64,000 nucleotides of DNA from IMG/VR virus record IMGVR_UViG_3300032116_022045, one strand, 5' to 3'. The notes beneath the pieces are model-generated. The model saw only the letters and a list, made by a program, of their open reading frames with translations. It had not been told where the DNA came from and searched no databases. The stretch comes from a virus. Taxonomy: Duplodnaviria; Caudoviricetes. Below, piece by piece: positions 2,396 to 26,027 of this stretch. The position numbers and the translations under genes were made by a program. The first letter of the stretch is position 1. Every line of letters starts with the position of its first letter.

Positions 2396-2427
2396 AATTA
2401 CTTTTTTTTTAACTTGTTATTTATAAT

Positions 2428-2551
2428 ACAAATATACTAATAATAATCGAACTAAACAAAAAAATGTTTTAATTTCGTGATATTTTTATTCTAAAATACT
2501 GTCGTAATTAAATACATATCAATTAGTTATAAAAATGTATTGCGTATAGCC
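2428..2551. repeat. 124-bp dispersed repeat, copy 1 (partner 25904..26027)
   Basis: Manual ungapped alignment, 112/124 identical. Confidence 0.95.
2429..2460 (-). promoter_or_regulatory. Bacteroidota sigmaA-type promoter (-33 TTTG / -7 TAnnTTTG)
   Basis: Minus strand TTTG-N20-TATATTTG upstream of ORF 1955..2395. Confidence 0.8.
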
Positions 2552-2568
2552 TGTTGTTATGTGCAAGG

Positions 2569-2853
2569 CTACAGTTCAATTTCAATCAAAGATGTTTCGA
2601 CAAGTTCAAACCAGCATTGATTATATGAACCGCTACCATCATCTTCCCAATTTCTTTTAAAGCCAAGCATATACCATTCTTCTGCCTTTAAATCTTTAGT
2701 ATCAATTTCATTAACCGATTCCCAAAGTTTATCAAAATCTTTTTTTACCAATGTTTCATTATCTCCAATTGAAGCAACTCTCAAATCAAATTCTTCAAAA
2801 GAAATTGAGCCATCAACTACGCTACTGTGTGTATAAATTTCAACGTAAATCAT
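2569..2853 (-). CDS. Hypothetical protein (cassette-like)
   Basis: 94-aa ORF flanked by attC-like boxes; ends in TAG. Confidence 0.7.
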   Translation of the reverse strand: MIYVEIYTHSSVVDGSISFEEFDLRVASIGDNETLVKKDFDKLWESVNEIDTKDLKAEEWYMLGFKRNWEDDGSGSYNQCWFELVETSLIEIEL

Positions 2854-2893
2854 TTCATTTCAAATTAAATTTAGTGCTGATAAACCGCCCAGC

Positions 2894-3023
2894 ACATAAC
2901 ATCGGTTTGGCAAAATTGGGGTTGACTTTTTTCTATCATTTTTTGTAGTTATTTAAACATTAGTAATTTTTATCTGTTTTTGTAGGTATTATCACACACT
3001 TCACCAAACTGTAGTCATTAGGT
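2894..3023 (-). repeat. Degenerate attC-like imperfect palindrome (~130 bp)
   Basis: Plus strand ACATAAC-ATCGGTTTGGCAAA ... TTCACCAAACTG-TAGTC-ATTAG; one terminal box degraded (ATTAG instead of GTTAG). Confidence 0.45.
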
Positions 3024-3206
3024 TTAATCATTAATTTGTTTTGAATCATCTATTGGTTTCACATCTGGAAGTTCGTTTATCCCCTGTTTTCCAATTGACT
3101 CAATAACATTCAACATTGGATGGTCTTTATCCATTTCAGTAAGTCCATCTAATAGACCACTCTCTTCCCATTTTTTGATAATTTCTTCTTTTCGTTTATT
3201 TTCCAT
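3024..3206 (-). CDS. Small hypothetical protein with a KWxxSGLLDGL motif
   Basis: 60 aa; has its own TACCTTTG promoter box at 3221-3228. Confidence 0.65.
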   Translation of the reverse strand: MENKRKEEIIKKWEESGLLDGLTEMDKDHPMLNVIESIGKQGINELPDVKPIDDSKQIND

Positions 3207-3220
3207 ATTTATATTTTTTA

Positions 3221-3228
3221 CAAAGGTA
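3221..3228 (-). promoter_or_regulatory. Bacteroidota -7 element
   Basis: TACCTTTG 14 nt upstream of ATG 3206; no well-spaced -33 box. Confidence 0.5.
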
Positions 3229-3246
3229 AAACAAATTAATGACTAA

Positions 3247-3300
3247 ACCTAACAAATGATAAACAACATTAAAACGATTGTTTATCATCGGACGTTATAA
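3247..3300 (-). repeat. Short attC-like palindrome (54 bp)
   Basis: Minus strand TTATAAC...GTTAGGT ends; perfect 11-bp inner arms ATGATAAACAA (3256-3266) / TTGTTTATCAT (3278-3288); the TAA stop of ORF 3295..3633 lies in the TAAC box. Confidence 0.6.
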
Positions 3301-3633
3301 GCCATTTTGACGAGCTACTACAACCATTCCGACCTCTGGATGATATTGGATAGCACATTTATATTCAGCAGCTAATTGATAAAACTTTTCAAGAAACTCC
3401 TTATGCTTACCTTCTGGAGTGTTGTGGTTAAGTTCAATCCTTTGCCCTTCTAAACTTGCTTTTCTTAACCCTATTTCAATTCCGTGTTTAATTCCTCTAT
3501 CCCAAGTTTCTCTCATTTCAACTTTAGAGTATTTATGAGTTCCAAAAAGCAAACTTAATCCGCTTTCTTTTTCTTGAAAAGATGTATCTCCTTTCATTTC
3601 TTCTCTGAAAATGTGTTCAATTCGTAAGTCCAT
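3295..3633 (-). CDS. Hypothetical protein (cassette-like)
   Basis: 112 aa, bracketed by two attC-like palindromes. Confidence 0.7.
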   Translation of the reverse strand: MDLRIEHIFREEMKGDTSFQEKESGLSLLFGTHKYSKVEMRETWDRGIKHGIEIGLRKASLEGQRIELNHNTPEGKHKEFLEKFYQLAAEYKCAIQYHPEVGMVVVARQNGL

Positions 3634-3661
3634 TTATTTTTGATTTGTGAAGAAAAACGGC

Positions 3662-3793
3662 TTATAACAGCACATTGCCAAAAGTGGCGGTTTAGTGCTA
3701 ATATCAACTGTTGTGCTTCGGTTTAACATTTGTGTTTATATCAAGTTTAGTGCTTCGATTTCGCCACCTTCGGCAATCTGCGGAACGTTATAG
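3662..3793 (-). repeat. Long attC-like palindrome (132 bp)
   Basis: Plus strand TTATAAC-A-GCACATTGCCAAAAGTGGCG ... CGCCACCTTCGGCAATCTGC-GGAAC-GTTATAG; arms pair 17/20; GC-rich arms in an AT-rich genome; the stop of ORF 3788..4045 lies in the TAAC box. Confidence 0.7.
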
Positions 3794-4045
3794 GTAATGC
3801 TTGACGAACCTATCTACTTTTGCTTGGCATTCTGCTTTACCTAAAAATTTTTGATACCATACCATTTGTTTAGTCTTTGTTTCAATTACAGCAATATCCA
3901 TAATTAACCCTTCATCACTTCCATATTCTAATGATTTAATTGCATCTTCAATAGTATTATGTTCATTATAATCAGTAACACCGAATCTATCAAAAATTGA
4001 AACAAAAGCACTACCTATAACAACAGGTTGTTTATTACTACTCAT
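3788..4045 (-). CDS. Hypothetical protein (cassette-like)
   Basis: 85 aa; stop overlaps the attC-like box. Confidence 0.7.
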   Translation of the reverse strand: MSSNKQPVVIGSAFVSIFDRFGVTDYNEHNTIEDAIKSLEYGSDEGLIMDIAVIETKTKQMVWYQKFLGKAECQAKVDRFVKHYL

Positions 4046-4053
4046 TTTTTTAG

Positions 4054-5046
4054 TTATTCGGTTATATTGTTTTCAATAATTCTTAATTTATTTATCACTT
4101 CTTTTTGTTCTTCTGTTATGCTTTTTGGTATTGATATATCAGCAATAACAAATAAATCACCACGTGAATTGCTTTTAAATTTATTTAATCCTTTTTGTGG
4201 TATTCTAAACATTTTATTTAATTCAGTATGTTCTGGTATGTTAATTCTTATTTTACCACCATCAATCGTTTCTATATCTATTTTATCACCTAATACTAAT
4301 TGGTCATATCTTAGCTTAACATTTAACTTTAAATCATCACCAGACCTAACATACGTGTCATGTGGTAATTCTTTAATTCTGACGATTAGATTACCATTTA
4401 TACCATTCCTAACAGCATTACCTCTACCATTTATATTAAAACCCATATTTTCAAAAACACCTTTTGGTATTTCTAATTCTATTTCGTCTGTTATCTTTTT
4501 AGTACCACTACCATTACAATCACCACAAACATCCTCATAAACAATACCATCACCTTCACAAACATTACAAGTTGTTGCTTGTTGGAAATAACCAAATGGT
4601 GTTTGTGTTACATTAATAATAACACCATCACCATTACATTTAGGGCAAGTCTTAGAATTTGTACCACCATGACCATTACATGTTTTACAACTATCCAATC
4701 TATCAAATCTATATTTGTTTTTTACACCATTATGTATCTCGTTAAGATTTAATTTAATTTCTAATAAAACATCACTACCAATCTTTTGTGGTTTCGCAAA
4801 ATCATTAAAATCAAATATTGAACGTCTTTTTTCTGTACCAAATCTATCATAATTTGACCTTTTTTCATCATCAGATAATACACCATAAGCCTCAGATATG
4901 TCTTTAAATTTTTCTTCAGCTTCTTTGTTGTCAGGATTCTTATCTGGATGATATTGCTTTGCCAACGTTCTATAGGCTTTTTTAATCTCATCCTTTGTTG
5001 CATCTTTAGCAACGTTTAAAATAGCATAATAATCTTTCTTTGACAT
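4054..5046 (-). CDS. dnaJ: DnaJ chaperone
   Basis: J domain with HPDKN, four CxxCxGxG Zn repeats, C-terminal GDL...IPEHT...RIPQKG domain. Confidence 0.95.
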
Positions 5047-25903: not shown

Positions 25904-26027
25904 ACAAATATACTATTAATAATCGAATTAAACAAAAAAATGTTTTAGTTGCGTGATATTTTTATCCTAAAATATTGTTGTAATTAAATATACATCAATT
26001 AGTTATAAAGATGTATTGCGCATAACC
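25904..26027. repeat. 124-bp dispersed repeat, copy 2, containing a TTTG-N20-TATATTTG promoter (25905-25936)
   Basis: 112/124 identical to 2428..2551. Confidence 0.95.

Follow-up and report, generated by a model that had tools for sequence, protein, structure and literature searches.

A probable orphan array of gene cassettes in a giant freshwater phage and a putative integron-like recombination system of Bacteroidota phages

On its minus strand, the region 2556-4021 of the window (the whole 64,000-nucleotide (nt) stretch of IMG/VR viral record IMGVR_UViG_3300032116_022045 analysed here) consists of four gene units and three inter-unit elements. We regard it as probable that this region is an orphan array of four cassettes belonging to an integron-like recombination system of Bacteroidota phages, one that employs a Xer-type recombinase. 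The observation itself is confirmed, and the original prediction, according to which the phage captures or carries gene cassettes by means of a tyrosine recombinase of its own or of its host, is supported in substance: by a family of similar arrays in other phages, by the self-complementary ends of the units, by homology breakpoints at the short cores that bound them, and by an enzyme encoded by related phages. We call the array an orphan because the contig shows neither a recombinase gene nor a stump of one, and because the tail of the array adjoins a promoter-bearing repeat. The source is a viral contig of 108,651 base pairs (bp) and ~27% GC from a freshwater giant phage; CheckV estimates its completeness at ~31%.

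Architecture of the array

The small open reading frames (ORFs) alternating with palindromes that first drew attention to the region are present at the coordinates originally given: four minus-strand ORFs (3788-4045, 3295-3633, 3024-3206 and 2569-2853, encoding 85, 112, 60 and 94 amino acids (aa), respectively) alternate with non-coding spacers. None of the four finds a family match in Pfam or PHROG. Read on the gene strand, each unit starts with GTTA and finishes with TAAC, or with TAAT in the case of unit C. What the original prediction had overlooked is that the first and last 14-25 nt of every unit are complementary to one another and not to the neighbouring palindrome, with a G·T mismatch at stem position 11 in all four units.

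Unit A (3787-4021, minus strand, 235 nt; GTTATAGGTAGTGCT ... AGCATTACCTATAAC) is paired at 15 of 16 positions, the exception being the G·T at position 11, and holds most of the 85-aa ORF, whose stop codon TAA (3788-3790) lies within the TAAC core. Unit B (3294-3668, minus strand, 375 nt; GTTATAAGCCGTTTT ... AAAATGGCTTATAAC), with 14 of 15 positions paired and the same G·T at position 11, carries the 112-aa ORF, which likewise stops within the core (3295-3297); these are the two stops in a TAAC box that had been noticed from the outset. The longest pairing is that of unit C (3017-3253, minus strand, 237 nt; GTTAGGTTTAGTCATTAATTTGTTTT ... AAAACAAATTAATGATTAAACCTAAT), where 24 of 25 positions are paired and the sole mismatch is the G·T at position 11; no match to this 25-nt repeat around the 60-aa ORF 3024-3206 is expected in shuffles (0 matches). 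The 3' core of unit C has decayed to TAAT, and a TACCTTTG box at 3221-3228 resembles the Bacteroidota -7 promoter element. In unit D (2556-2900, minus strand, 345 nt; GTTATGTGCTGGGC ... GCCTTGCACATAAC), the ends pair at positions 1-9 and 12-14, with T·T at position 10 and once more G·T at position 11. The 'half site' previously described at 2556-2562 does contain a TAAC box, but it is the TAAC end of this fourth unit.

Unit D carries the 94-aa ORF 2569-2853 behind a 5' leader with a conserved small hairpin, TGCTG-GGCGGTTTAT-CAGCA, and this leader is found ahead of unrelated ORFs in 105 IMG/VR loci. Located ~22 nt ahead of the start codon, the leader hairpin (window 2854-2900; loci L005-L109) overlaps with the unit's 5' arm; two covarying forms of it exist, GTGCTG...CAGCAC and CCTGCTG...CAGTAGG. 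An H-type pseudoknot in the same leader was considered and dropped as sterically unlikely, by reasoning alone.

The palindrome reported at 3662-3793 is real and corresponds to inter-unit element 1, a long hairpin of 118 nt (3669-3786, minus strand) with arms GCAGATTGCCGAAGGTGGCG and CGCCACTTTTGGCAATGTGC and a variable loop. Free energies are given here with z relative to shuffles, both strands having been folded. Element 1 folds at -20.5 kcal/mol (z -2.8) on the gene-sense strand and at -13.0 kcal/mol (z +0.4) on the opposite strand, exceeding shuffles on the sense strand only. Its GC content is 42% against 27% for the window, so that the claim of GC-rich arms applies to the long hairpin and fails for the other elements. 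Related elements in Flavobacterium phage 6H and in IMG/VR contigs are 72-89% identical to element 1, with covarying arms. The second palindrome (3247-3300) is equally real (-8.4 kcal/mol, z -3.1): inter-unit element 2, a short hairpin of 40 nt (3254-3293, minus strand), comprises a 5-nt unpaired spacer, an 11-12 bp stem, the loop TCGTTTTAATG and TT before GTTA. The site at 2894-3023 had been called degenerate, rightly so: it folds no better than shuffles (z +0.6 and +1.5), and the core upstream of it is TAAT, not TAAC. It contains inter-unit element 3 (2901-3016, minus strand, 116 nt), of the long type and decayed, in which the outer arms ACTACAGTTTGGTGAAGTG and TTTTGCCAAACCGAT are still recognisable; its 3' arm matches an arm, TTTTGCCAAACCGCT followed by GTTATG, present in ~100 IMG/VR loci.

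All three inter-unit elements are single-copy in this contig, which rules out an explanation by genome-wide promoters or repeats. When the contig was scanned in full for more units, background pairs alone emerged, and these did not have the position-11 signature.

A family of arrays in other phages

Over 150 IMG/VR phage contigs share this anatomy, as do Flavobacterium phages 6H and 2A and Polaribacter phage P12002L, and arrays in relatives count up to 15 units or more. The inter-unit elements of the window have nucleotide-level matches in otherwise unrelated phages, namely in three published genomes of huge phages, where identity reaches 95%, and in Flavobacterium phages 6H and 2A; exact-pattern scans of IMG/VR with three short conserved stretches retrieved 105, 48 and 11 loci. 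From the IMG/VR loci we compiled 271 non-redundant units, on which the stem statistics of the family are based. In these units, positions 1-4 are invariant (GTTA/TAAC) and the flanking stem is 15 bp long; positions 5-10 and 12-15 are free in sequence, covary and are Watson-Crick paired in 80-100% of cases, at position 11, 209 units have G·T and 29 have A·C, and pairing drops to background past position 15. An inverted partner scoring at least 9 was found for 136 of 188 element ends in relatives, compared with 16 of 188 random starts, and flanking repeats of the GTTA...TAAC type number 1638 against ~480 for comparable 4-mers (~3.4-fold).

The short hairpin is under similar constraint. Across 41 distinct copies, stem cells are paired in 97.6% of cases, whereas shuffles reach 73.9% and slid partners no more than 62%; compensatory changes affect 140 cells against 36 in shuffles, and 11 of 12 stem pairs covary. 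The AAC/GTT cores are invariant throughout, in 41 of 41 short hairpins and in 271 of 271 units. The 11-nt loop TCGTTTTAATG (window 3262-3272; also in L114, L182 and others) is likewise invariant in 41 of 41 short hairpins, in which the stems change freely, and it also caps gene-less, 'empty' GTTA-N5...N5-TAAC stems such as GTTATGGCT-loop-AGCCATAAC. Because the loop is both invariant and found on gene-less stems, it suggests itself as a recognition element in its own right.

The exact short-hairpin core occurs in at least 48 viral contigs, as opposed to one 1.4-kb contig of a metagenome-assembled genome among 185,579 prokaryote species genomes. On this one probe, the elements of the short-hairpin type appear not to have been copied from host chromosomes.

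In freshwater metagenome contigs, the summed contig depth over the short hairpin is 50-150x that of its flanks, and depth over hairpins or leaders (3242-3375, 2840-2973 and 3644-3777) is 5-150x that of neighbouring genes in runs X3, X9, X13 and X14, four metagenomes labelled freshwater or 'fungus', so that the same elements must be present in many further genomes there. The metagenome runs were available as assembled contigs only, in which circles, read-level junctions and strand are not visible, and both the depth and the cargo variants found there are a measure of abundance and modularity, not of activity. A joint from 2560 to 3653 in these data has 21 letters on one of its sides and carries no weight here. 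A further observation concerns GIY-YIG/NUMOD homing-endonuclease-like genes in or near the arrays of relatives (L194, 606-1247; L196, 1322-2008 and 13597-14307), one of which lies inside the array region of L196.

A tyrosine recombinase at the array end in relatives

As stated in the original prediction, no tyrosine recombinase is encoded in the window, and the same is true of the 108-kb contig. Searches of the contig with three array-linked recombinases (tblastn) and with the junctions described below (blastn) returned chance-level matches only, and no recombinase stump is visible. Among 50 element-bearing records, 20 matched PF00589, 14 of them with a recombinase of ~265-295 aa (E-values 1e-34 to 1e-40). 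In 13 of these 14, the start codon of the recombinase is preceded, at a distance of 36-52 nt, by the end of a same-strand array that holds up to 14 units or more. In an independent approach that started from recombinase homologues identified by protein search, four contigs were examined, all four with arrays upstream, none with arrays downstream, and all with the same junction; both routes combined, the array abuts the recombinase gene in 17 of the 18 relatives examined. This junction is conserved (TAAC followed directly by TATTATATA) and reads ...ATT-N5-TAAC and then T(A/C)TTATATA.... The last unit reaches it directly at TAAC, with no hairpin between, and the genes in the arrays read towards the recombinase.

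The linked enzyme, 265-280 aa long and Xer/IntI-like, consists of a SAM-like N-terminal domain and a catalytic domain. Its matches rank in the order archaeal XerA, XerD, IntI and XerC, all of them under the curated cut-offs: the best NCBIfam profile is XerA_Arch (186-198 bits, cut-off 220), XerD scores 156-175 bits (cut-off 330), and the IntI profile TIGR02249 scores 151-164 bits (cut-off 265). The best match in the PDB is XerA (4a8e), with a full-length, continuous alignment. The alignment with the integron integrase VchIntIA (2a3v) is split, query residues 20-179 corresponding to chain residues 17-180 and query residues 193-264 to chain residues 244-313, so that ~50 residues of VchIntIA are absent from the linked enzyme at the place where the IntI-specific segment lies. 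That segment is held to be necessary for the recognition of folded attC sites. The conserved positions of the R, K, H-x-x-R, H and Y motifs align with those of both XerA and VchIntIA, the motif residues near the catalytic tyrosine are conserved and, judging by its sequence, the enzyme looks intact.

Cargo turnover and homology breakpoints

The cargo of the arrays is extremely diverse, since 308 units give 281 sequence clusters. When copies of one unit are found in differing contexts, homology breaks 0-8 nt from GTTA and 0-4 nt from TAAC, even where the neighbouring hairpins are unrelated. Breakpoints away from the GTT boxes, the outcome that would have spoken against gene cassettes, were not seen in this comparison of relatives: homology breaks at the GTTA and TAAC cores. 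Unit A, for example, recurs in locus L031 with different neighbours and between two unrelated hairpins, and five IMG/VR loci contain unit C, with 93-95% identity and homology that stops at the 3' core. A 400-nt metagenome contig spans exactly 3294-3667, in unit B, and diverges beyond. Conversely, the same unit ends may enclose different genes: the ends of units C and D surround other ORFs in LR756500 and in metagenome contigs, and metagenome variants with other cargo within the same unit ends are common. In the pair L147/L149, the recombinase-side flank is common to both, with different unit sets between this flank and a common unit.

In the pair L003/L160, the common block comprises a hairpin and the unit that follows it, both cuts falling at TAAC; the hairpin thus moves with the downstream unit. 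Among 239 single-ORF units, the ORF starts within the preceding hairpin in 104 but extends beyond TAAC in only 18, and its stop lies within the TAAC box in 61; stop codons are concentrated in the 3' arm, notably at offsets -1, -13 and -11. Because ORFs start in the preceding hairpin, and because the last unit meets the recombinase junction without a hairpin, the functional cassette would be, as far as the sequences tell, a hairpin together with the following gene, the mirror image of the ORF-then-attC order. As to the crossover, a position at TAAC or right beside it would fit best, although breaks at GTTA occur too.

Known systems and competing explanations

Among the alternatives, the one that survives best, albeit as a rather improbable account of the whole, is that these are regulatory cassettes of the PeSL kind, whose inter-ORF blocks each combine an early promoter with a terminator stem-loop; hairpins and leaders would then be terminator/promoter or RNA-processing/stability elements, the flanking repeats would pair in the mRNA, and shuffling would proceed by ordinary homologous recombination without a dedicated recombinase. 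The PeSLs of T4-type phages resemble our elements in being conserved non-coding stem-loops that separate small ORFs of variable kind where the genomes of large lytic phages are plastic, and in marking the borders of gene gain, loss and replacement, and the shuffling that they mediate is documented (PMC2839356, PMC4122927). Such a role would agree with the much better folding of the gene-sense strand, with the fixed G·T, which would be a stable G·U in RNA, and with the ORFs (104 of 239) that begin inside a hairpin element; it would also agree with the TACCTTTG box 15 nt ahead of ORF 3024-3206, the one promoter-like box within the array (3221-3228), and with the conservation of 40-50 nt leaders before unrelated ORFs. 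However, PeSLs are thought to act via homologous recombination, with no recombinase of their own, whereas the phage arrays show close linkage, in a fixed direction and through a conserved junction, to a tyrosine recombinase and possess covarying stems that enclose the genes as well as invariant 4-nt breakpoint cores. Breaks occur where the flanks have in common just this 4-nt core and a few bases, which offers little substrate for homologous recombination, and a gene-enclosing, covarying 15-bp stem is needless for a promoter or a terminator. Moreover, no T-run follows the hairpins, and TAnnTTTG boxes are not enriched in the window (128 matches versus 136 expected). Regulation of this kind and cassette recombination are not mutually exclusive; the two accounts are compatible with each other.

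The resemblance to integrons is closer. As in integrons and in clusters of attC sites lacking integrases (CALINs), the arrays hold small, diverse, promoter-poor genes on the same strand, separated by imperfect palindromes with AAC/GTT cores; as in integrons, the ends of each cassette are complementary mutually rather than to the neighbouring site (so in all four window units), which in integrons is the mark of crossover within the box, a tyrosine recombinase gene stands beside a non-palindromic junction at one array end, and orphan arrays without the enzyme exist. Like attC sites, the inter-unit elements are imperfect palindromes that fold into hairpins and keep structure over sequence; in the window, elements 1 and 2 fold in this way and element 3 has decayed. 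The match to the attC boxes (R'' RYYYAAC and R' GTTRRRY) is imperfect, as originally noted: in gene orientation, the window sites read CTATAAC/GTTATAA (5/7 and 5/7), TTATAAC/GTTAGGT (5/7 and 7/7) and ACCTAAT/GTTATGT (6/7 and 6/7). In the family as a whole the base following GTTA is T in 49% of units, which breaks the attC GTTR. The paired box of the phage units is 15 bp long with a fixed G·T at position 11, while that of attC is 7 bp. In attC, extrahelical bases lie in the L box of the recombined strand; the phage sites have an asymmetric internal loop of 5 nt versus 2 nt beside the core in addition to the fixed position-11 mismatch, and no single bulged bases are evident. Whereas attC lies 3' of the cassette ORF, with crossover between G and TT of R' opposite the gene strand, in the phage arrays the hairpin comes first and the gene-sense strand folds better. 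The arrays further differ from integrons in that their genes read towards the recombinase, that the elements are phage-borne and not on bacterial chromosomes (on the one probe mentioned above), and that the phage enzyme aligns continuously with XerA and is devoid of the ~50 VchIntIA residues that include the IntI-specific segment.

These differences bear directly on whether the window holds a classical CALIN, with true attC sites derived from, and served by, the IntI of a bacterial host, a possibility to which we attach very little weight. Its best arguments are the invariant AAC...GTT cores and the size of the imperfect palindromes (54-132 nt, inside the attC range), to which a published case can be added. 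Qi et al. 2023 (PMC9892861) described attC clusters in a few phages, including a CALIN of Polaribacter phage P12002L, in whose genome we find methyltransferase genes separated by elements of the present hairpin family. The primer sequence of P12002L_attC1 is of the short-hairpin type, with the same loop as window 3254-3293. This site was called attC by HattCI only, the Infernal step did not confirm it, and among six sites it was the sole one for which no recombinants with IntI1 were verified (PMC9892861). Together with the hairpin 5' rather than 3' of the gene, the 15-bp box with its fixed mismatch, an enzyme under the TIGR02249 cut-off and the practical absence of the short-hairpin core from 185,579 prokaryote genomes, this argues against true attC: the sites are attC-like in design, not attC. 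A full-text search of the literature found no description of the family, of self-complementary units or of the Xer-like recombinase; the only publication found to touch on the family presents a single site of this type, as an attC prediction.

The recombinase is Xer-like, its best matches being XerA and XerD. The dif modules of Acinetobacter plasmids (PMC6449649) are, like the phage units, gene modules with inversely oriented arms, of which the inner part is conserved and palindromic (…TAA / TTA…) and the outer part variable, and they are reshuffled between replicons. A dif site, in contrast, is 28 bp long (two 11-bp arms and a 6-bp centre), while in the phage family a hairpin of 40-120 nt (40-118 nt in the window) stands between the arms; only the array-tail junctions of this contig put TAAC and GTTA/GCTA cores 1-5 nt apart. 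Also unlike in dif modules, the outer arm of the phage unit is unit-specific and covaries with the other end of the same unit, and the enzyme is encoded by the phage at the array end, as a single recombinase gene rather than a XerC/XerD pair.

A Xer-family enzyme acting on a hairpin of one strand, as in the system proposed here, is known from CTX-phi, whose folded single-strand attP(+) site is used by XerCD. In that case, unlike in ours, the whole phage genome integrates at the host dif site and there is no gene-cassette array.

The units could also be miniature transposons, or single-strand elements guided by hairpins as in IS200/IS605, that an unlinked transposase inserts beside a TAAC target. 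Each unit does have terminal inverted repeats, and insertion at a fixed tetranucleotide with sub-terminal hairpins recalls IS608. Such elements are scarcely credible here, as the repeat sequences vary from unit to unit in a way intolerable to a sequence-specific transposase, no target-site duplications are seen, and the units form ordered head-to-tail arrays beside a tyrosine recombinase.

Several points weigh against an integron-like system and have to be set beside the evidence in its favour. The recombinase is devoid of the IntI segment; PF00589 and TIGR02249 find no match in the 108-kb contig; and among the 50 element-bearing records there are three essentially complete giant phages that carry the elements yet no recombinase. 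In the window, one of the three inter-unit elements has decayed, and so has one core. The hairpins may act on RNA too, or instead, considering the better fold of the sense strand, the ORFs that start in hairpins and the promoter-like box in one leader. Breaks are seen at both GTTA and TAAC cores, including GTTA at the head of the window array, and ordinary homologous recombination could account for exchange where 40-nt hairpins are identical. Finally, none of the products of recombination, be it a circle, a deletion junction or an insertion, has been observed, the metagenome data being contigs only. With these points taken into account, we still consider an orphan cassette array of an integron-like phage system the probable explanation of the region.

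Borders of the array and flanking genes

At its head, the array is bordered by a junction without a hairpin (4022-4060, minus strand) that extends between the 3' end of a DnaJ-like gene and the first GTTA core; it includes the ATG and first 8 codons of ORF 3788-4045, and CCTGTT directly precedes GTTA. In L031, which has the same unit as A, homology begins ~7 nt ahead of GTTA. The first 8 codons of this ORF thus lie outside the cassette. In L031 the body of this cassette is joined to another N-terminus, ~20 codons long and encoded by the hairpin before it, in the loop and the arm, so that N-termini can be exchanged when cassettes move.

The tail flank (2396-2555, minus strand) lies outside the cassette system. 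It is the intergenic promoter region, with TATATTTG at 2429-2436, of the gene at 1955-2395, and its homology starts directly after the last TAAC core; the array tail accordingly adjoins a promoter-bearing intergenic repeat, not a recombinase junction. This intergenic block of ~120-137 nt with its TATATTTG box (similar to the Bacteroidota -7 element) exists in three copies in the contig, at ~91% identity (window 2427-2563, window 25904-26020 and, outside the window, contig 101155-101291). Homology of all three copies starts just past an ORF-terminal ...TAAC core, with GTTAT/GCTAT following 1-5 nt later. The self-complementary ends expected of cassettes were not found in the ORFs upstream of the other two copies.

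Genes in the region are all on the minus strand. On the 5' side the array is preceded by the DnaJ gene (4054-5046, minus strand; stop at 4054-4056), which is full-length, with J, zinc-finger and C-terminal domains, and from which the four small ORFs follow. Beyond these come, in order, a gene for a phage-metallopeptidase-like protein (1955-2395), a thymidine kinase gene (1416-1952) and a ClpP protease gene (243-959), each of them on the minus strand. A search of the entire window against Rfam gave zero matches at gathering thresholds, and no transfer RNA or transfer-messenger RNA genes were found in the search for them.

A possible mechanism and its implications

The steps of the mechanism (folding, binding, crossover point and insertion site) are inferred from sequence. 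A cassette, made up of a hairpin and the gene 3' of it, would in its free circular form present one composite site: the ends of the unit would form a 15-bp lower stem, topped by an asymmetric internal loop and then by an upper stem that closes in a terminal loop. Such a site might fold in single-stranded or cruciform DNA, probably from the gene-sense strand, and two recombinase monomers would be bound per folded site, as is the case for IntI on folded attC. Strand exchange would take place at the TAAC core or beside it. New cassettes would enter at the recombinase-proximal junction, and recombination between pairs of sites would lead to the excision or reshuffling of units. The units of the window may be movable only with an enzyme provided in trans, or may now be fixed.

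With less assurance than for the array itself, we lean towards a wider proposal, namely that Bacteroidota phages, lytic jumbo phages included, possess a self-contained integron analogue of independent design. It would combine a minimal XerA-like enzyme with folded sites that have a cassette-specific lower stem of 15 bp, a fixed wobble pair and a hairpin 5' of the gene that doubles as its start region; it would let co-infecting phages trade hundreds of accessory genes, and the array in the window would be stranded, mobilisable in trans.

Bacteria capture and shuffle genes by means of integrons, the textbook device for it, whose chemistry is believed to require the special segment of IntI. Should the mechanism be as proposed, there is a second cassette system, phage-borne and with a simpler Xer-type enzyme, so that the capture of genes through folded sites either arose more than once or predates IntI, and the need for the IntI segment becomes open to a direct test. 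The four-unit array described here, an orphan case and, with the recombinase missing, not the best specimen, helps to map the spread and the decay of the system. A working system would also explain how large Bacteroidota phages of freshwater and marine habitats acquire and exchange their many small genes without known function, which probably include genes for host takeover and counter-defence.

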